Shown: positions 4,409-33,842 of the stretch, one piece after another
How the letters are laid out: every line of letters begins with the position of its first letter
Position numbering within the stretch: the first letter of the stretch is position 1
Source of the DNA: a virus
Lineage: Duplodnaviria; Heunggongvirae; Uroviricota; Caudoviricetes
Direction: 5' to 3' (one strand)
IMG/VR virus record: IMGVR_UViG_2908567220_000006
Span: 1-43,859 of that record
Length of the DNA: 43,859 bases
Made by a program: the position numbers and the translations under genes
Notes under the pieces: generated by a model
What the model was told of the DNA's origin: nothing
Databases searched by the model: none
Seen by the model: the letters and a program-made list of their open reading frames with translations, nothing else

Positions 4409-4485
4409 TTACCGTTGAGGTAATGATTATGCGTATTTGGTTTGGTGTCAATAGATATGAGTTAAAAAAATTACCCTTTAGGTAA
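4409..4485. promoter_or_regulatory. oL-like operator pair (TTACC-N5-GGTAA at 4409-4423 and 4471-4485) with leftward early promoter
   Basis: Two perfect copies of the 15-bp palindrome between the repressor gene 3' end and the first early-left gene. Confidence 0.55.
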
Positions 4486-4493
4486 TCAAACAG

Positions 4494-4520
4494 GCAATAA
4501 AAAAGCCGCCAGAAGGCGGC
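4494..4520 (-). terminator. intrinsic terminator downstream of repressor gene
   Basis: GCCGCC-AGAA-GGCGGC hairpin followed on the minus strand by a T-run, about 25 bp after the repressor stop. Confidence 0.5.
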
Positions 4521-4542
4521 TTACTTACTGAAAAATATGATT

Positions 4543-5127
4543 TTATTGTTTGTTTTTTTCGTTCTGGTTGATGACAAATTCAATGTAACTTTCGATCTTT
4601 GCTTTCTCGGTTTCGGGTAACAATGCGTAGCGCGAGCGGTCATAGTTGATGGTCGCAGGGTCGTGCGGGTGAATCAGTAATTCATAGCCGTGACGCCCGA
4701 ATGCGGATGCAACATTCTCCAGGGTGGAAATGGAAACGCTGACCTCATTGTTTAACAGGCGGCTGATTGTCACCTGGGAGACGCCAGATGCGCGGTGAAG
4801 TTTTCCCTGTGTTGAAAGGTCGCGGCTTTCGCTCATCCAGCGTTCCAGGTTGTGAGCCGCCAGTTGACCAATGTCGCTTGGTCCGACAGGCTGAAAACCT
4901 TCCTGAGAAAGCGAGCGATCGATATCAAGCCAGTTACGGGGTTTATTGGCGGCAGCTTCGATTTTTCGCGCAACCTGGTCGCCGATAACCTTCTTGCCAA
5001 GAGCCCAGCGGTTTACCAGATTTGCCTGAGTTCCAAGTTTTTCTGCCATCCGCGTCTGAACACCATTGAATTCACGGTCGATCAAGTCGTTGAGATTTTG
5101 CCTGCGGACGTCCTGGATACTTTTCAT
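4543..5127 (-). CDS. CI-like phage repressor with two tandem XRE-type HTH domains
   Basis: 194 aa; two HTH-like segments (GVQTRMAEKLGTQANLVNRW and LHRASGVSQVTISRLLNNE); divergent from a Cro-like gene; no S24 peptidase motif is apparent. Confidence 0.7.
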   Translation of the reverse strand: MKSIQDVRRQNLNDLIDREFNGVQTRMAEKLGTQANLVNRWALGKKVIGDQVARKIEAAANKPRNWLDIDRSLSQEGFQPVGPSDIGQLAAHNLERWMSESRDLSTQGKLHRASGVSQVTISRLLNNEVSVSISTLENVASAFGRHGYELLIHPHDPATINYDRSRYALLPETEKAKIESYIEFVINQNEKNKQ

Positions 5128-5182
5128 TTTCTGGAAAATCGCCTCATATCTGAATCAGAAGATGATTCAATTTAAAGCAATA

Positions 5183-5245
5183 TTACCCAACAGGTAAATG
5201 CACCTCATGGGTAACTATCCTTGATTTTTGTTACCTTATAGGTGA
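5183..5245. promoter_or_regulatory. oR-like operator cluster with divergent pRM-like and pR-like promoters
   Basis: Three palindrome copies in the 154-bp repressor-cro intergenic region: 5183-5197 perfect, 5200-5214 GCACC..GGTAA, 5231-5245 TTACC..GGTGA. Candidate pR: -35 TTGATT 5221-5226, -10 GAATAT 5244-5249. Confidence 0.6.
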
Positions 5246-5281
5246 ATATTTATTATCTGAAATAAATATCAGGCAATAGCT

Positions 5282-5512
5282 ATGAGCGATAACGGACATT
5301 TCGATTTCAAAAAGCACTGGCTTGCACTTACTCCGGATGAGCGTGAAGCCTTCGCACAGGAAGCCGGAACGACGAGTCACTATATCCAGACTCACTTAAC
5401 AGGTAAGCGCAAAATGCCAGGTAAGGTATTGATGGATGGGCTTTTTAAAGCCTGTAAATCAAGACAATGGCTGCGCTCAAAAGCAGAACTGGCATACTTC
5501 TTCTACTCATGA
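5282..5512 (+). CDS. Cro-like / YdaS-type small HTH regulator
   Basis: 76 aa, divergent from the repressor, transcribed from the operator region. Confidence 0.6.
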   Translation: MSDNGHFDFKKHWLALTPDEREAFAQEAGTTSHYIQTHLTGKRKMPGKVLMDGLFKACKSRQWLRSKAELAYFFYS

Positions 5513-5533
5513 TATCCAGCCACAACCCTCTGT

Positions 5534-5557
5534 AGACCGCCATCCGGCGGTCTTTTC
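5534..5557 (+). terminator. intrinsic terminator after cro (tR1-like)
   Basis: Perfect 8-bp stem AGACCGCC-ATCC-GGCGGTCT followed by TTTTC; a palindrome copy (5568-5582) lies immediately downstream. Confidence 0.6.
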
Positions 5558-5663
5558 ATATCTATTCGTACCTCAAAGGTAATAAAAAACCAAATATGGT
5601 TGATCTTTTTTTTTGTGTCAGCACAAAATAACCGTAATCCCAATACTAATAACAGGGCTTACC

Positions 5664-7514: not shown

Positions 7515-7591
7515 TTACCTGTTAGGTAATAAAATATTCTAAAATCTATTGATTTCGTGTCTTATGTGGTTTTTAATTACCTTAGAGGTAA
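7515..7591. promoter_or_regulatory. two palindrome copies (7515-7529, 7577-7591) upstream of nin-like operon
   Basis: Perfect TTACC-N5-GGTAA copies; the second overlaps the Shine-Dalgarno of the gene starting at 7595. Confidence 0.5.
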
Positions 7592-11764: not shown

Positions 11765-12095
11765 ATCAGCAGCAGAGCGCAAAGCCGCTCAGAGAGCCAG
11801 ACAAGCTGCATCTGGTGTGCGTAAGCTGGAAATTGTGCTTGATGCTCAGGAAATTGAAATGCTGGAGCGTAACTGTGCCACGCGTCGCCCCGGGCGTGCG
11901 CCTTACGAATTTGGTGAGTATATAGCGTTACTGATCCGCCAGGATGATGCACGCGTGCGCGGGCGTATAAAATCGATCAGCAGAAAATGTTGCGGTAAGT
12001 GCGGCGAGAGAGTTCCAGTTAATTCATGCCCGTGTAATGGTGACTCGCAATGCTGGGTGACTAAAGGCTGGCATGAAACGAAATTAATAGTGTGA
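11754..12095 (+). CDS. Cys-rich hypothetical protein; candidate late-gene regulator
   Basis: C-terminal CCGKCG...CPCNGDSQC cluster; last gene before a terminator and the terminase operon. Regulator role is inference from position only. Confidence 0.45.
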   Translation: MMAKSAAERKAAQRARQAASGVRKLEIVLDAQEIEMLERNCATRRPGRAPYEFGEYIALLIRQDDARVRGRIKSISRKCCGKCGERVPVNSCPCNGDSQCWVTKGWHETKLIV

Positions 12096-12144
12096 CATGT
12101 CACGAGTAGATTATGCATGATGAATTTGATGGGTTTTGAATACT

Positions 12145-12170
12145 GCCGCCAACTATGGCGGCTTTATTTT
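12145..12170 (+). terminator. intrinsic terminator upstream of terminase operon
   Basis: GCCGCC-AACTAT-GGCGGC hairpin followed by TTTATTTT. Confidence 0.5.
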
Positions 12171-12181
12171 GCATGGTACTA

Positions 12182-12214
12182 TTACCACAACGGTAACTAT
12201 TACCACGGTGGTTA
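12182..12214. promoter_or_regulatory. palindrome pair immediately upstream of small terminase start
   Basis: 12182-12196 perfect TTACCacaacGGTAA; 12200-12214 TTACCacggtGGTTA overlapping the SD. Confidence 0.5.
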
Positions 12215-12216
12215 TG

Positions 12217-12810
12217 ATGCCTGCTGAACCTAAAACCTATAAACGCAAATCAACGCAATTTAAGCCACTAACAGCAATGCAGGAGGCTTATTGCCAGTCA
12301 TACATCAAAACGCCTGAAAACCAGACTCAGGCAGCGATTAACGCAGGATTCTCCCCAAATACAGCGGCAGTTAAAGCCAGTGTCATGATGCGCGATGAAC
12401 GCATTCAAAAACGGATTGCCGAGTTGATGGAGGAGCGCAACAAACGAATGCGCGTCAGTGCTGATTACGTTCTCATGCGCCTGGTGGAGATCGACCAGAT
12501 GGACGTGATCGACATCCTCAACGACGATGGGAGCCTTAAACCAATCCGTGAGTGGCCGAAAATCTGGCGCACTACGCTTAGTGGCTTTGATCTGTCATCG
12601 ACCATCATGAACATGAACGAGGATTCGATAGAGACAATCCTCAAAAAAATTAAATGGCCTGACAAGGTGAAGAACCTTGAGCTGATTGGTAAGCATGTTG
12701 ATGTCAACGCGTTCAAAGAACGTCTGGATGTTAATGTGAATGTGACAATTGCTGATCGCATAGCAGCAGCCAGGAAGCGACTCAAAGAACGTCAGGATGG
12801 TAATCAGTGA
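12217..12810 (+). CDS. terminase small subunit
   Basis: Start at MMPAEP with GGTGG SD; about 197 aa, directly upstream of and overlapping the large terminase. The ORF-track start at 12136 would read through the operator copies. Confidence 0.7.
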   Translation: MPAEPKTYKRKSTQFKPLTAMQEAYCQSYIKTPENQTQAAINAGFSPNTAAVKASVMMRDERIQKRIAELMEERNKRMRVSADYVLMRLVEIDQMDVIDILNDDGSLKPIREWPKIWRTTLSGFDLSSTIMNMNEDSIETILKKIKWPDKVKNLELIGKHVDVNAFKERLDVNVNVTIADRIAAARKRLKERQDGNQ

Positions 12811-14282
12811 CAGATACAGCGTTATCTCCTGAAGAGCAGTTGATCGAGGATATTGCAGGGTTCACTCACGATCCGCTTGGCTATGCCCTCTATGCGTTCC
12901 CGTGGGGGGAAGAGGGGACTGAACTGGCACATGCCACCGGCCCACGTCAGTGGCAGGCTGATGCGTTCCGAGAGATACGTGATCACCTGCAGAATCCAGA
13001 GACGCGCTATCAGCCGCTTATGCTGGCACGCGCTTCTGGTCACGGTATTGGTAAATCCGCATTCATCTCAATGCTGATCAACTGGGGCATGTCCACTTGC
13101 GAGGATTGTAAGGTCGTGGTGACCGCCAACACCGACAACCAGCTACGAACGAAGACCTGGCCGGAAATTATCAAGTGGTCGAACCTTGCTATCACGAAAG
13201 ACTGGTTTACCTGTACCGCTACCGCGATGTACAGCAATGATCCTGGACACGACAAGCGGTGGCGAGCTGACGCAATACCCTGGTCTGAGCACAACACTGA
13301 GGCATTCGCCGGACTACACAACGAGCGCAAACGCATCATCGTGGTATTCGATGAAGCGTCGAACATTGCGGATCTGGTGTGGGAAGTTGCCGAGGGTGCG
13401 CTAACGGACGAAGACACTGAGATTATCTGGGTGGCGTTCGGAAACCCGACGCGTAATACCGGACGTTTCCGCGAATGTTTCCGCAAATATAAACACCGCT
13501 GGAAAACTGCGCAGATTGACAGCCGGACGGTGGAAGGCACCAACAAACAGCAGTTGCAGAAATGGGTTGATGACTACGGGGAAGACAGCGACTTCGTAAA
13601 AATCCGTGTGCGCGGCATATTCCCTGATGCATCTGAATTGCAGTTTATCCCTACCGGTCTTACTGACGAGGCAATGAAACGGGTGGTAACTGCTGCGCAG
13701 GTGGCACATGCTCCGGTGATAATCGGCGTTGACCCTGCATACTCCGGTGTTGATGACGCGGTGATATACCTGCGGCAGGGGCTGCACAGTAAGGTGCTGT
13801 GGACCGGCAACAAGACCACTGACGATCTGATTATGGCAAAGCGTATCGCTGACTTTGAAGACCAGTATCAGGCTGACGCGGTGTTCATCGACTTCGGTTA
13901 CGGTACCGGGCTGAAGTCAATCGGTGACGGTTGGGGGCGCACATGGCAACTTGTTCCGTTCGGTGGTGCGTCCACTGACCCGCAGATGCTTAACAAGCGT
14001 GGGGAGATGTTCAATGCATGCAAGACATGGCTGAGGCTGGGCGGCATGCTGGATGACCAGGAAACAGCGGACGAACTGTCGGCGGCAGAGTACAAAGTTC
14101 GCGTGGACGGTAAAATCGTTATCGAACCGAAGGAAGATATCAAGGAGCGGCTTGGGCGTTCGCCGGGTAAAGGCGATGCGCTACTGCTGACGTTTGCTTT
14201 CCCGGTGTCGAAGCGTCTGCGAATTCCCGGTCAGCAGAACCAGCAAGGCAAGGCCATTACAGATTACGATCCCTATGCTTAA
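12807..14282 (+). CDS. terminase large subunit
   Basis: 491 aa; Walker-A-like ARASGHGIGKS; GTG start overlapping upstream stop. Confidence 0.85.
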   Translation: MTDTALSPEEQLIEDIAGFTHDPLGYALYAFPWGEEGTELAHATGPRQWQADAFREIRDHLQNPETRYQPLMLARASGHGIGKSAFISMLINWGMSTCEDCKVVVTANTDNQLRTKTWPEIIKWSNLAITKDWFTCTATAMYSNDPGHDKRWRADAIPWSEHNTEAFAGLHNERKRIIVVFDEASNIADLVWEVAEGALTDEDTEIIWVAFGNPTRNTGRFRECFRKYKHRWKTAQIDSRTVEGTNKQQLQKWVDDYGEDSDFVKIRVRGIFPDASELQFIPTGLTDEAMKRVVTAAQVAHAPVIIGVDPAYSGVDDAVIYLRQGLHSKVLWTGNKTTDDLIMAKRIADFEDQYQADAVFIDFGYGTGLKSIGDGWGRTWQLVPFGGASTDPQMLNKRGEMFNACKTWLRLGGMLDDQETADELSAAEYKVRVDGKIVIEPKEDIKERLGRSPGKGDALLLTFAFPVSKRLRIPGQQNQQGKAITDYDPYA

Positions 14283-14333
14283 TCCTCTGGAGGGGATAAT
14301 GCTGCTGATATCCTCTGGTGAGGATAAAACAAA

Positions 14334-14359
14334 GCCAGCTCATCGGCTGGCTGTTTGTG
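14334..14359. terminator. bidirectional hairpin between terminase operon and convergent moron
   Basis: GCCAGC-TCATCG-GCTGGC stem flanked by T-rich tracts on both strands. Confidence 0.45.
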
Positions 14360-14372
14360 ACATGTCACGGTG

Positions 14373-14729
14373 TTATTGCTCGCTTAACTTCTGCTTCAGC
14401 AAGTAACCTTCGAGCATCCAGATTTTGTTTACAGCATTCTGCCGGGCAATCTTCCGACCAATTTCTGCATCAAAATTTTCCGGACTTGCACAGGCACTCT
14501 CTCCGGTGACGGTGAAGCCATTCTTCAGTACCAATACGCAGAAAGTCAGGAGGTCTGTAGATTTATGCGCTGTCCATGAATCGCCAACGCCCATATTGGC
14601 AGCACGAATGCCGTCATAAGCAGTAAAGAAATGCTCTTCAAGAATGATGCTTTCGATATATTGAGGCGTAACTCGCGGAGCGGTTTTGCCTTTCTCAACG
14701 ATTTCTTTTTCGATTTGCTGGTCGTTCAT
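14373..14729 (-). CDS. hypothetical protein, reverse-oriented moron in the late region
   Basis: 118 aa; AAGGTGAG SD; opposite strand to all flanking structural genes; a weak resemblance to small phage Gp49/Sf6 gp66-like proteins is recalled but unverified. Confidence 0.5.
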   Translation of the reverse strand: MNDQQIEKEIVEKGKTAPRVTPQYIESIILEEHFFTAYDGIRAANMGVGDSWTAHKSTDLLTFCVLVLKNGFTVTGESACASPENFDAEIGRKIARQNAVNKIWMLEGYLLKQKLSEQ

Positions 14730-14740
14730 AATCTCACCTT

Positions 14741-14764
14741 AAAAAAATGCCCGGCGAACCGGGC
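14741..14764 (-). terminator. intrinsic terminator immediately upstream of moron gene
   Basis: GCCCGG-TTCG-CCGGGC hairpin followed on the minus strand by TTTTTTT, about 10 nt before the gene's SD. Confidence 0.6.
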
Positions 14765-14840
14765 GAACTGGAAGCAATGAGTTATGCCTTCCGTGGCTGT
14801 ACTGGTTTACAGCATGAAGTCATCGCAATGGCGTCCTGCT

Positions 14841-14884
14841 GTAAAAAGGGCGGTGATAGTCCTTCAAGGGAAACCATCACCGCC
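14841..14884 (-). terminator. intrinsic terminator downstream of tRNA-Arg
   Basis: 9-bp stem GGCGGTGAT/ATCACCGCC followed on the minus strand by CTTTTT, about 45 nt after the tRNA 3' end. Confidence 0.55.
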
Positions 14885-14927
14885 AAGCACCTGGAACTTC
14901 TGGCATCACGGTCCTTAGGCGTGATTC

Positions 14928-15004
14928 TGGCGTGGCATGCAGGATTCGAACCTGCGACCAACCGCTTAGAAGGCGGTTGCTCTGTCCAGCTGAGCTAATG
15001 CCAC
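14928..15004 (-). tRNA. tRNA-Arg (anticodon UCU)
   Basis: Manual fold of the reverse complement: 7-bp acceptor stem GTGGCAT/ATGCCAC, D-arm GCTCAGCTGGACAGAGC, anticodon stem ACCGC/GCGGT with loop CTTCTAA, T-arm GCAGGTTCGAATCCTGC, discriminator G plus CCA. Acceptor stem differs from my recollection of host argU. Confidence 0.9.
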
Positions 15005-15326
15005 AACGCTGAGAGCACTTAGCCTGTTAAGGCGCCACACTTTGTCGCGGCTCCATAAATGCTCTCATCGTTGTGCCCTCGTCTCTTCCGAGGCGTCACA
15101 CCGAATCGCCGGGATGGTGAATCCCCGTGCGCGGAATAAAACCGCTCGACTTGCACATTCCGGCTACCTGGTTCGTTTGCCCGAGCAAGGGAGGGTGCCC
15201 CTTAAACGTATCCAGACCGCTATCGGCGCATGTGCCATACGCCGTACTGCTCAAAATAAAAGTTCACTCCACCTGTTCAATTTAACGACAAGCCAGTCAG
15301 GTTAATAACCGGAATGAACCCTTTGC

Positions 15327-15341
15327 TTACCTGAAAGGTAA
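15327..15341. promoter_or_regulatory. palindrome copy upstream of portal/head operon
   Basis: Perfect TTACCtgaaaGGTAA about 90 bp upstream of the first ORF of the head operon. Confidence 0.5.
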
Positions 15342-15431
15342 TAATTTGTGCGTTAAATGTCAACTGTCTACGATAAATAAATCATATGTGGTTAAATTGG
15401 TAATAATTTAATTGCGTACGGAGTCATTGAT

Positions 15432-15638
15432 ATGTGCATGGGTAGCTCACCATCAGTGCCTGCAACACCAGAAGTTCAGGCAGCACCACAGGAGCAGGAT
15501 GCCGCCGTTGTTGATGCCCGCGACGAAGAAACTCGTCGCCGTCGCGCTGCTGCTGGTCGTAGTTCTACGCTGCTTACCGGTTCTCAGGGCGACACATCAA
15601 CCGCTAATACCAGCGGTAAAACGCTGCTTGGTCAGTAA
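15432..15638 (+). CDS. small hypothetical protein upstream of portal
   Basis: 68 aa; GGAG SD; its start context cggagtcattga is repeated before the portal start. Confidence 0.4.
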   Translation: MCMGSSPSVPATPEVQAAPQEQDAAVVDARDEETRRRRAAAGRSSTLLTGSQGDTSTANTSGKTLLGQ

Positions 15639-15652
15639 CCGGAGTCATTGAA

Positions 15653-17332
15653 ATGGCGGAAACAACTAAAGAGCGATTGAACAAACAGTTCGCACAACTT
15701 GAAAGCGAGCGTCAGTCGTTCGAGCCGCACTGGCGCGAGTTGAGTGATTACATCAACCCGCGTGGTTCCCGCTTTCTGACTTCTGAGGTCAACCGTAACG
15801 ATCGACGCAATACACGCATTATTGATTCGACCGGGACTATGGCGGCGCGCACTCTCGCCAGCGGCATGATGTCAGGCATCACAAGCCCCGCGCGTCCGTG
15901 GTTTCGCCTGGCTACGCCAGATCCTGAAATGATGGATTATGGCCCTGTTAAGTTGTGGCTTGAGGCGGTGCAGAACCGTATGAACGATATGTTCAATAAG
16001 TCGAATCTCTATCAGTCGCTGCCGCAGTTATACGGAAGCCTCGGCACATACAGCACTGGTGCAATGGCGGTGCTGGAGGATGACGAGGACATCATTCGCA
16101 CAATGCCATTCCCGATAGGCAGTTACTACCTGGCTAACTCACCTCGTGGCAGTGTGGACACCTGTTTTCGCAAGTTCTCTATGACTGTTCGTCAGCTTGT
16201 TCAGGAATTCGGACTAAATAACGTCAGCGAATCCGTAAAAAGCATGTGGGAAAGCGGCACCTACGAGAAGTGGATTGAAGTGATGCATTCGGTTTACCCG
16301 AACATTGACCGCGATACATCGAAGCTGGATAGCAAGAACAAGCCATTCAAATCGGTTTATTACGAGGTTGGTGGCGACAACGACAAGTTGTTACGTGAAT
16401 CCGGATTCGATGAGTTTCCAATTATGGCTCCGCGCTGGGAAGTTAACGGCGAAGATGTTTATGGATCATCATGCCCGGGTATGCTGGCGCTTGGACCTGT
16501 TAAGGCATTGCAGCTTCTTCAGAAGCGCAAGTCGCAGTTGATTGATAAAGCCACCAATCCGCCGATGGTTGCTCCGACTTCCCTCAAGAATCAGCGCGCC
16601 TCCCTTCTTCCTGGCGACATCACGTATATCGATCAGATTACTGGTCAGGATGGTTTCAGGCCTGCTTATCTGGTTAACCCCAGTACAGCAGATCTGGTGG
16701 CAGACATTCAGGACACTCGTCAAATCATTAACAGCGCCTACTTTGTCGATCTGTTCATGATGTTGCAGAACATCAATACCCGCTCGATGCCTGTGGAAGC
16801 GGTGATCGAAATGAAAGAAGAAAAACTTCTGATGTTGGGGCCGGTTCTGGAGCGTCTGAACGACGAATGTCTTAATCCTCTCATTGACCGCGCTTTCTCG
16901 ATGATGGTGCGTAAAAACATGCTGCCGCCACCGCCTGACGCGATGGAAGGCATGCCCCTGAAGGTCGAATACATTTCCGTCATGGCTCAGGCGCAGAAGT
17001 CTATCGGCCTGTCCAGTCTGGCGTCCACGGTTAACTTCATTGGTCAACTTGCGCAAGCGAAACCAGAAGCTCTCGACAAACTCAACGTTGATCAGGCGAT
17101 CGATGCATTCGCTGATATGTCCGGAGTGTCTCCAACCGTCATTGTTCCGCAGGAACAGGTTGAGCAGGCTCGCCAGCAACGGGCACAGCAGCAACAGCAG
17201 CAACAAATGATGGCGATGGGGATGGCGGCGGCACAGGGTGCCAAGACGCTAAGCGAAGCTAAAACTTCGGATCCGAGTGTTTTGTCAGCTATGGCGAATG
17301 CAGTTAGTGGTCAGGGTGGGCAATCACAATGA
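15653..17332 (+). CDS. portal (head-to-tail connector) protein
   Basis: 559 aa; position after the terminase region; Gln-rich C-terminus QQRAQQQQQQQMMAMGMAAAQ reminiscent of T7-type connectors. Confidence 0.7.
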   Translation: MAETTKERLNKQFAQLESERQSFEPHWRELSDYINPRGSRFLTSEVNRNDRRNTRIIDSTGTMAARTLASGMMSGITSPARPWFRLATPDPEMMDYGPVKLWLEAVQNRMNDMFNKSNLYQSLPQLYGSLGTYSTGAMAVLEDDEDIIRTMPFPIGSYYLANSPRGSVDTCFRKFSMTVRQLVQEFGLNNVSESVKSMWESGTYEKWIEVMHSVYPNIDRDTSKLDSKNKPFKSVYYEVGGDNDKLLRESGFDEFPIMAPRWEVNGEDVYGSSCPGMLALGPVKALQLLQKRKSQLIDKATNPPMVAPTSLKNQRASLLPGDITYIDQITGQDGFRPAYLVNPSTADLVADIQDTRQIINSAYFVDLFMMLQNINTRSMPVEAVIEMKEEKLLMLGPVLERLNDECLNPLIDRAFSMMVRKNMLPPPPDAMEGMPLKVEYISVMAQAQKSIGLSSLASTVNFIGQLAQAKPEALDKLNVDQAIDAFADMSGVSPTVIVPQEQVEQARQQRAQQQQQQQMMAMGMAAAQGAKTLSEAKTSDPSVLSAMANAVSGQGGQSQ

Positions 17333-33560: not shown

Positions 33561-33827
33561 GGCGATCACCTTTGTAGTTAGGTTAATCACCACCGCTGAG
33601 ACCAATCAGATGGTGGTGAACTGTGCAGAGTTGGTCTTACCGGCTACAAAGGAACCCGGCGCACCTTTCGGTGCCCCCACACAGCCCACCATAGAATAGG
33701 TGCGCTTTACACATAAAAAAACCGCTTATGCGGCATATGTGCCTCTGTAGTAATCCGGGAGACCAATCCCGGCACTGGATTTTGCCAGTGCCCGATTACT
33801 ATGGCACAAGAGGAGTGCGATGTAAAT

Positions 33828-33842
33828 TTACCGCAAAGGTAA
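33828..33842. promoter_or_regulatory. palindrome copy upstream of Bro-N antirepressor
   Basis: Perfect TTACCgcaaaGGTAA. Confidence 0.45.

Follow-up and report, generated by a model that had tools for sequence, protein, structure and literature searches.

Why should the plus-strand late region of an epsilon15-like podovirus be split, between its terminase and portal genes, by a block of DNA read from the opposite strand? We addressed this question in IMG/VR virus record IMGVR_UViG_2908567220_000006, whose 43,859 nucleotides (nt; hereafter the window) hold a phiV10/TL-2011b-like prophage of the genus Uetakevirus (epsilon15-like podoviruses), with 92-99% identity to phiV10/TL-2011b-like phages across 1.5 kb around the locus. 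An initial annotation had placed a tRNA-Arg(UCU), two terminators and a gene of 118 amino acids (aa) on the minus strand, flanked by the plus-strand terminase genes (terS and terL) on one side and the portal gene on the other, and all of these were found in the positions that it had given. Absent from it was the element on which the present analysis centers, here called X: a pseudoknotted RNA of ~240 nt, encoded on the minus strand at 15005-15245 and running straight into the tRNA. The order along the minus strand is thus promoter and operator (~15370-15327), X (15245-15008), tRNA-Arg(UCU), a small hairpin, a first terminator (T1), a spacer, a second terminator (T2) with a ribosome-binding site, an exchangeable gene, and a third terminator (T3).

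We judge the chances to be even that this block is a single transcription unit, kept in epsilon15/phiV10-like phages and placed under the control of the prophage repressor. Our assessment is equally balanced for the proposal that X represents a new class of large, pseudoknotted early phage RNA, which would act either by protein-free read-through of terminators or as a released factor for counter-defence or host takeover. Already known from this locus are the tRNA, the gene and one terminator, which are annotated in relatives, as well as the gene family, whose function has been published. Apparently new are X as an RNA family, its recurrence at an early, repressor-controlled position in phages of three unrelated groups, its incorporation of a tRNA, and an anti-defence slot behind a pair of terminators.

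Fold and conservation of X

The tRNA is separated from the small gene that precedes the portal gene by 430 bases in which no credible open reading frame (ORF) was found. Their identity is 97-99% to E. coli relatives and ~70-77% to phages of Salmonella, Klebsiella, and Enterobacter. The core of X folds into four hairpins, with the loops UGGCACA in H1, UCACCA in H4, and GAAGAGA in H5, and with a variable domain enclosed by H2. One pseudoknot (PK2) joins CACC of the H4 loop to GGUG, and a possible second one (PK1) joins GCACA of the H1 loop to UGUGC. The core is followed by a 3' stem domain whose closing stem covaries between copies (GAGAGCA/UGCUCUC, AAGAGCA/UGCUCUU, or GUAGCUCAC/GUGAGCUAC). In most variants, a long stem (GUUGUGGUG/CACCACAAC) beyond this domain closes a further domain, which has the shape of a cloverleaf with arms placed like the D and T arms.

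Covariation was assessed in 35 copies of X that are no more than 95% identical, using a model of the four hairpins and two pseudoknots. Standard pairs are formed in 98.4% of the cells, and two-sided changes occur at 11 pairs (86 cells), values that none of 500 shuffles reached; when the partners were slid by one to three columns, pairing was 26-48%. In H1, pair 24:36 changes from G-C (21 sequences) to A-U (12) and pair 22:38 from G-C to C-G, while H2 shows C-G (20) to U-A (15) at 50:105 and H5 shows C-G (21) to G-C (12) at 188:199. The pseudoknot behaves in the same way, with C-G (30) to A-U (5) at 158:178, and the H4 loop reads AACC exactly where the downstream strand is GGUU. Other stretches are invariant, namely UGGCACAUG, AGCGGUC, and GGUAGCCGGAAUGUGCAAG. 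RNAalifold proposed a long-range helix between the 5' part of X and the invariant 19-mer, which was rejected for want of two-sided changes beyond the shared pair 50:105; hairpin H1 was preferred because it does show them (24:36 in 12 sequences, and 22:38).

Hypothetical ORFs that overlap X, the tRNA, or the tRNA-like domain are annotated in public records, namely PhiV10p04 (locus L001, 2672-2923), cdtI orf40 (L005, 1504-1959), mEp460 gp37 (L156, 4930-5298), mEp390_036 (L009, 1339-1581), and BUCT709 WCS67766 (L007, 1492-1782), and on this basis 15005-15245 might be thought to encode a small protein or to act as a site in the DNA itself. Neither the frame nor the strand of these ORFs is constant from record to record, and they are probably spurious. 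The compensatory substitutions in stems, the G-U pairs found on the minus strand only, and the variable-length insertions, which fall in loops, all speak for an RNA and make the protein-gene or DNA-site explanation extremely improbable. The flanking tRNAs, moreover, all lie on the same strand as X.

Two familiar types of regulatory RNA were considered and set aside. A boxA/boxC (Nus-factor) reading of UGCUCUC..GUUGUGG was rejected, as this segment is a helix strand that covaries and that is replaced by unrelated sequence in some variants. A transcriptional riboswitch does not fit the layout either, since T1 lies ~120 nt past X (further in relatives), with the tRNA or tRNA-like domain in between. 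Searches with Rfam 15 returned only the tRNA over 14250-15700 at E <= 5, and gave no match on X in nine other loci at E <= 1. Likewise, no description of X was found in a literature search that covered noncoding RNAs encoded after cI, structured and antiterminator RNAs of phages, the exact conserved sequences, the P1 transcriptome, and N-less lambdoid phages.

Promoter, terminators and gene slot around X

A promoter-like site ahead of X is directly followed by a copy of the prophage operator (Table 1). With up to two mismatches allowed, the window contains 14 copies of this operator where 1.06 would be expected, a 13-fold over-representation. Six copies lie at 4409-5582 around the probable repressor gene (immunity region), and others at 7515-7591, 32780, 33828, and 34208, a scattering that suggests, as far as sequence can tell, a P1-like repressor regime. 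The same repeat stands ahead of X in prophages of Citrobacter, Pseudocitrobacter, and Buttiauxella, and the epsilon15 record (Kropinski) marks a repressor site at the equivalent position. Because the operator adjoins its predicted promoter, the unit is probably repressed in a lysogen and not expressed from it; most likely, lysogens would keep it silent, and infection or induction would turn it on. A diverging plus-strand promoter might be a further target of the operator, or its actual one. As a separate observation, window positions 33609-33791 (minus strand) match the Rfam C4 antisense RNA (78.6 bits) beside isrK (74.7 bits), in the arrangement of a P1/P7-type immI region, with the operator copy at 33828 close by.

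Table 1. Coordinates of the features of the minus-strand block and of its flanks in the window.
Feature	Position	Strand	Description or basis
X core	15070..15245	minus	~175 nt; H1, H2, H4, H5, PK2, possible PK1
X 3' stem domain	15008..15069	minus	GAGAGCA/UGCUCUC with two small hairpins inside; ends 3 nt before tRNA
Promoter-like site	15341..15370	minus	TAGACA, 18-nt spacer, AATTAT; TTGACA 7 nt inside; consensus scan
Prophage operator	15327..15341	both	TTACCT-N3-AGGTAA, perfect inverted repeat directly after -10; repeat count
tRNA-Arg, anticodon UCU	14928-15004	minus	encoded CCA; ARAGORN call tRNA-Arg(tct); Rfam RF00005
Conserved hairpin	14905..14925	minus	AUCACG-CCUAAGGAC-CGUGAU; just 3' of tRNA
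Terminator T1	14841..14884	minus	14-pair stem, loop UUUCCCUUGAAGG, then CUUUUUAC; scan site 14884..14849
Conserved T1-T2 spacer	14765..14840	minus	hairpin GGAAGGC..GCUUCC; comparison of relatives
Terminator T2	14741..14764	minus	GCCCGG-UUCG-CCGGGC, A, U7; six G-C pairs; scan site 14764..14749
Shine-Dalgarno sequence	14733..14740	minus	AAGGUGAG; directly after T2 U-run
118-aa protein gene	14373..14729	minus	intact ORF; Pfam match PF13876 (N4 Gp49 / Sf6 gp66)
Palindrome	14357..14368	both	GTGACATGTCAC; right-hand edge of gene slot; second perfect copy 12092-12103
Terminator T3	14333..14352	both	after gene; minus-strand scan call; plus-strand rho-independent terminator annotated in phiV10
terS	12136-12810	plus	flank of minus-strand unit
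terL	12807-14282	plus	flank of minus-strand unit
68-aa ORF	15432-15638	plus	conserved, directly before portal; phrog_831 (function unknown), epsilon15 gp3 homologue
portal	15653-17332	plus	opposite flank of minus-strand unit

All three terminators consist of a G+C-rich hairpin directly before a U-run. The terminator scan found four sites against 2.6 +/- 1.7 in shuffles, a count that is not significant by itself; the terminators are credible because they are conserved in relatives with compensatory changes in their stems. The T1 stem contains GAUGG/CUAUC in the window and ACCAG/CUGGU or GGCAG/CUGAC in relatives, and the T2 stem (GCCCGG..CCGGGC in the window) becomes GCCCAC..GUGGGC in some relatives and keeps its sequence around another loop (GCCCGG-CGAA-CCGGGC) in others. 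More generally, UGGCGGU...ACCGCC and a U-run follow X in most loci that are not of P1 type, and the mid-stem positions of this hairpin change in a compensatory way; in lambdoid loci, T1 has an interrupted U-run that escaped the general terminator scan, and it was found by a separate scan and direct reading. T3 appears to serve the converging transcripts of terL and of the cargo gene, since phiV10 annotates the identical hairpin as the plus-strand terminator of terL.

The segments between these terminators are conserved as well. The hairpin AUCACG-CCUAAGGAC-CGUGAU follows the tRNA or tRNA-like domain in loci from E. coli, Salmonella, Enterobacter, Klebsiella, and Citrobacter, and this small hairpin (AUCACGCCUAAGGACCGUGAU), between the tRNA and T1, is the same in the window and in relatives with a tRNA-like domain. 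The T1-T2 spacer is ~85-90% identical (by eye) among E. coli, Salmonella, and Enterobacter phages, and a Klebsiella phage matches its first ~45 nt only. In shape, the spacer with T2 (14765-14848, minus strand) resembles the 3' end of a small RNA. The stretch that follows X in BUCT709 (L007, 1355-1474, minus strand) gave a full-length match to Rfam RprA at 50 bits, below the cut-off of 70, and shares AAUUGCUGUGUGUAGUCUU with E. coli RprA.

The product of the gene behind T2 matches PF13876 over the entire profile (1-82 of 82; E = 1.7e-34; 118.6 bits against a cut-off of 27), and homologues were found in 632 phage records. This family corresponds to Acb4, tetrameric sponges that sequester 3'3'-cGAMP with a sponge:ligand stoichiometry of 1:1; the ligand was bound by all eight homologues assayed, and Acb4 activity appears early in infection (bioRxiv 10.1101/2024.12.30.630793). 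A sequence search of the PDB gave a single match, anti-CBASS 4 (Acb4; 9E4W, E = 0.006), with which the 118-aa protein shares the motif ENFxxEIGR. The ligand contacts of SPO1 Acb4 are V56, Y57, F62, N63, I66, T70, and K81; F62 and I66 are kept in the 118-aa protein, and the alignment shows changes of V56 to C, Y57 to A, N63 to D, and T70 to I. The protein further differs from SPO1 Acb4 by an N-terminal extension of ~40 residues, and the Acb4 alleles of this locus have a hypervariable central segment. PADLOC returned no match for the protein, and PHROGs matched it only to families of unknown function. Judged by its sequence, membership in the Acb4 family is solid. Because this family is an anti-CBASS sponge, the gene would serve counter-defence during infection, in place of the role in superinfection exclusion that had been considered for it.

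How could this gene be expressed? Its Shine-Dalgarno sequence begins 0-2 nt from the T2 U-run, closer than the ~10 nt first reported, and its ATG lies 11 nt past that run. The consensus scan detected no sigma-70-like promoter on the minus strand between the tRNA and the gene (14730-14927), including the T1-T2 spacer. Since a single upstream promoter is followed by X and the tRNA, by T1 and T2, and then by a promoterless gene with its own ribosome-binding site, read-through is the simplest route to the gene, which agrees with the earlier proposal. It is unlikely, in our view, that the gene is instead driven by a promoter that is not sigma-70-like inside the spacer, with T1 insulating it from X and the tRNA: such a promoter would fire straight into T2, it has no counterpart in the scan, and most relatives have the Shine-Dalgarno sequence joined directly to the T2 U-run. 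It would nevertheless account for the conservation of the first ~45 nt of the spacer across four host genera, beyond what position alone would need, and for the extra 110 nt with an AT-rich stretch that TL-2011b carries ahead of its different cargo gene.

If the unit is transcribed as a whole, its output would be divided in two. Once repression is lifted by infection or induction, the polymerase would make X and the tRNA first. A cut by RNase P at the 5' end of the tRNA could then release X as an RNA of ~240 nt, and as X shares its transcript with a tRNA or a tRNA-shaped element, such processing would fix where X ends. The Acb4 mRNA would be made only by polymerases that get past T1 as well as T2, so that the terminators would separate an RNA part from a protein part. 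Of this scheme, the analysis shows the parts with their order and conservation, the fold of X, the gene family, and the operator beside the promoter; promoter activity, repression, RNase P cutting, and read-through are inferred.

The exchangeable nature of the gene became apparent from the terL-portal interval of nine Uetakevirus genomes (E. coli, Salmonella, Enterobacter, and Klebsiella). All nine have the minus-strand order T1, spacer, gene slot, palindrome GTGACATGTCAC, and T3, and all nine keep the first ~45 nt of the spacer. In most of them, T2 is fused to AAGGUGA ahead of the slot, and the Shine-Dalgarno sequence belongs to the conserved platform, with the junction UUUUUUUAAGGUGA standing ahead of different genes in most Uetakevirus-like loci. 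The exceptions are TL-2011b, in which the extra 110 nt after T2 replace the shared Shine-Dalgarno sequence (and whose block of shared homology begins at 14741), and a Klebsiella relative that lacks both T2 and this sequence. In the 33 loci compared, occupants of the slot include many Acb4-family alleles, a ~140-aa family, a membrane/coiled-coil protein of 282-296 aa, and the 115-aa protein of TL-2011b. In two IMG/VR loci (L060 and L064), the first ORF after T2 encodes a 98-aa protein of PF11195, 'Thoeris anti-defense 2-like' (Tad2-like; E = 3e-24). Because two sponge families occupy the same slot, we regard it as an anti-defence position.

The palindrome marks the edge of this slot. Its perfect copies in the window lie just before terS (12092-12103) and just after terL (14357-14368), with 0.09 expected, and it is kept at the cargo boundary in every Uetakevirus locus that was read; from its sequence and placement, it may be a protein-binding site that brackets the terminase genes. 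In phage Tyrion (L159, 450-514, minus strand), an int-alpA RNA was detected with Rfam (44 bits, cut-off 35.8) near the second cargo gene of the interval.

These comparisons do not support the view of the block as a private moron insertion, since the platform is kept throughout Uetakevirus, the gene alone is exchanged, and no promoter of its own was found. Some hallmarks of a moron are present, namely a cargo that is exchanged between close relatives and a terminator (T3) after the gene. A classical moron of this phage, with low expression in the lysogen to the benefit of host or prophage and with a tRNA that boosts late translation, is nevertheless very unlikely, as the sole upstream promoter carries an operator, the platform is conserved across the genus, and the gene family is a counter-defence sponge active during infection.

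Codon usage bears on the same explanation. The tRNA itself is a cloverleaf with a 7-nt anticodon loop (Rfam RF00005, 71.7 bits against a cut-off of 29, model positions 1-71 of 71), and it contains A20, C35, and the encoded CCA, which are identity elements of arginyl-tRNA synthetase (ArgRS). AGA amounts to 8.1 per 1000 codons and to 13.6% of the Arg codons in 36 phage ORFs; usage in E. coli is ~2 per 1000. The proposal that the tRNA boosts late translation is half supported, by the overall enrichment: terS, terL, and the portal, scaffold, and major capsid genes contain 0-1 AGA each, and AGA codons concentrate in tail/injection proteins, early genes, and accessory genes. The tRNA-Arg, which lies in an apparently repressor-controlled unit of early type, may be a translation aid, and it could just as well be the handle by which X is processed, or a backup that protects against anticodon nucleases. 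At the 3' side of X it reads GUUGUGGCAU...AUGCCAC, and it occupies the exact place of the cloverleaf-shaped, tRNA-like domain of relatives.

Genomic settings of X and their bearing on its role

X extends far beyond Uetakevirus. It was detected in 1,843 of 5,426 complete E. coli genomes (34%), and among the records listed, PGAP placed no feature under the X match in 39 of 40 and a hypothetical protein in the remaining one. An exact 22-mer of X occurs in at least 120 IMG/VR contigs, and an exact 19-mer in 23 genomes, nearly all from Enterobacterales, after exclusion of a match in Oscillospiraceae (L139) that was attributed to chance. The segment 15005-15245 is ~80% identical to unannotated DNA in cdtI, mEp460, Stx2a/Stx2c phages, P1, P7, D6, and SJ46, and matches of ~80% were also found in a Klebsiella siphovirus and in a phage isolated on Stenotrophomonas. 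Only one copy was found per genome, with none on the PR side or elsewhere.

The lambdoid phages offer the clearest view of its position. In cdtI, cI ends with a terminator and is followed by a near-consensus promoter (TTGACA-16-CATAAT, 11/12) that is overlapped by ATGTACC-N5-GATACAT, an operator type that recurs between cI and cro (OR). X starts ~45 nt past this promoter. Its tRNA-like domain is followed by T1 (11-bp stem and CUCUUUUUAC) and by another long hairpin, which ends in UUUUGU; the early-left genes orf39, yfdQ, an HD phosphatase gene, and the excisionase gene (xis) lie beyond these two hairpins. The same layout of repressor gene, X, and early-left operon is seen in mEp460 and Stx2a_WGPS2, and no N gene is annotated in any of these three phages. 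The repressor of mEp460 is a different one, with operator-like repeats both before X and in OR, and two repressor families stand ahead of X across 75 loci. A terminator was found 140-620 nt past the X core in 26 of 35 representative loci.

This arrangement raises the possibility that X is a protein-independent processive antiterminator, a nascent RNA that binds the polymerase transcribing it and makes this polymerase ignore T1, T2, and later terminators, which would make X equivalent in function to HK022 putL or to lambda nutL together with N. We rate this explanation of X as credible though somewhat short of even. It would explain why N-less lambdoid phages carry X at the place of putL or nutL, just after a repressor-controlled PL, with terminators in cdtI between it and the early-left operon, and why in the window a promoterless anti-defence sponge lies behind two terminators; a 1:1 sponge would be expected to need abundant early expression, and yet a strong-looking T2 stands in front of it. 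A comparison of the window, cdtI, and BUCT709 found the integrase as the only common phage protein family, apart from a weak match between the repressors of the window and cdtI, and because no dedicated partner family is common to these three genomes, X would seem to need none. The long invariant stretches of X suggest contact with a conserved host machine. This explanation has no answer for the constant tRNA or tRNA-like neighbour, and X has neither sequence nor size likeness to put. Also counting against it are the long T1 stem, epsilon15, which has kept the gene and lost most of X, and the P1 copy, which no terminator follows.

That neighbour is the starting point of the other explanation, to which we give a similar, less-than-even standing: X would be a stand-alone stable RNA that tRNA-processing enzymes excise from the early transcript and that works in trans, perhaps as a decoy for a host defence or for a host enzyme of RNA handling, or by inhibiting either. 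In that case, T1 and T2 would be tandem terminators of X, and the downstream gene would receive leak-through only. A tRNA or a cloverleaf-like domain abuts X in every architecture examined, on its 3' side in Uetakevirus and on its 5' side in P1, where X lies between trnI and ban and where the tRNA (Ile, CAU) stands directly 5' of X in P1-type copies. The T4 tRNA cluster likewise encodes stable RNAs of unknown function. A dedicated terminator after the module in most loci and the anti-defence slot in its neighbourhood also agree with a stable RNA, as does the Klebsiella phage SopranoGao, in which X has its own promoter and is followed by tandem tRNA-like modules. A stable RNA would leave unexplained why whole early-left operons, and a sponge that should need abundance, lie promoterless behind terminators, and no target can be named for it.

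Within the reading of the block as one repressor-controlled transcription unit, these two modes of action are weighted alike. Active help for the polymerase past T1 and T2, by analogy with HK022 put and with no phage protein, is tentatively favoured to a degree below one half; the same holds for a processed stable RNA that acts on a conserved host component while read-through is a passive leak; and what is left falls to some other function.

Several observations weigh against this reading as a whole. The predicted promoter of X matches the consensus at only 9 of 12 positions, and the conserved T1-T2 spacer might hide a type of promoter that is invisible to the scan. The P1 copy has no T1 after X. 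In SopranoGao, X is followed by three modules of a stem and a tRNA-like element and by no obvious genes; these tandem modules span ~800 nt (L008, 150-940, minus strand), each element being flanked by CGUU/AAC, and the last has a near-canonical D arm. Passive leakage fits poorly, since T2 looks strong while a 1:1 sponge should need high expression. Active read-through fits imperfectly because the T1 stem is long, and long terminator stems resist processive antitermination in another system (PMC10325885).

Epsilon15 provides a further point against it. Only the first third of X is left there (L010, 1487-1554), where a 13-mer of the X H2 loop (UUCCCUUGAUGCU) is joined to the identical 13-mer of the T1 loop of SPN1S-type relatives. 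Besides the tRNA, the deletion removed half of T1 and the greater part of X; T2 and an intact Acb4-family gene remain, which argues that X is dispensable for keeping the gene. Many variants have a CCUUG-like motif in the loops of both H2 and T1.

Even so, X deserves attention, as it sits where temperate phages decide early gene expression and is absent from Rfam 15 and from the RefSeq/GenBank records examined, despite its presence in P1 and in Stx2- and CDT-converting phages. If X acts on RNA polymerase, it would explain how early-left operons are expressed in N-less lambdoid phages, and it would provide a second system of protein-free antitermination, structurally unrelated to put and available in a tractable host. 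If it is a processed stable RNA, it would be a new phage effector RNA. In either case, the slot behind X, with its Acb4-like and Tad2-like sponges, is a practical site for mining new counter-defence genes.

Comparison with known systems

Among the closest known systems is put of phage HK022, a cis-encoded antiterminator RNA that needs no phage protein (PMC9378689). As with HK022 putL, X lies just past a repressor-controlled early promoter in lambdoid phages without N, with terminators after it; the succession of early promoter, RNA, and terminators in the absence of N is found in cdtI, and mEp460 and Stx2a_WGPS2 match it in the layout of repressor, X, and operon. In contrast to put (~70 nt, two stem-loops), X has a core of ~175-190 nt, which reaches 250-800 nt with accessory domains and includes at least one pseudoknot. 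A search of the HK022 early region with an X profile gave no match, and X has no sequence relation to putL or putR. X also differs from put in its single genome copy, with none on the PR side, and in its constant tRNA or tRNA-like neighbour; an antitermination role for X would be by analogy.

The lambda nutL - N - tL1 region is comparable in that X occupies a PL-leader position, with an immediate-early product ahead of terminators that gate the delayed-early genes. Unlike in lambda, N is missing from the lambdoid phages that carry X, and the boxA-like UGCUCUC is one strand of a covarying helix, which is not conserved as boxA. The phage-borne tRNA-Arg of phiV10-like and SPN1S-like phages is the same gene in the same place and is already annotated in several relatives. 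What sets the tRNA of the window and of those relatives apart from plain phage-borne tRNAs is that it forms part of a larger structured transcript, at the position of the tRNA-like domain, a setting that is undescribed.

Finally, GOLLD, ROOL, and the stable RNAs of the T4 tRNA cluster are ornate, multi-domain phage RNAs of unknown function that lie near tRNAs or contain them. X resembles them in being phage-borne, multi-domain, and adjacent to a tRNA. It differs in that it matches no Rfam model, has other hosts (Enterobacterales) and a smaller core, and occupies a defined place after repressor-controlled early promoters.

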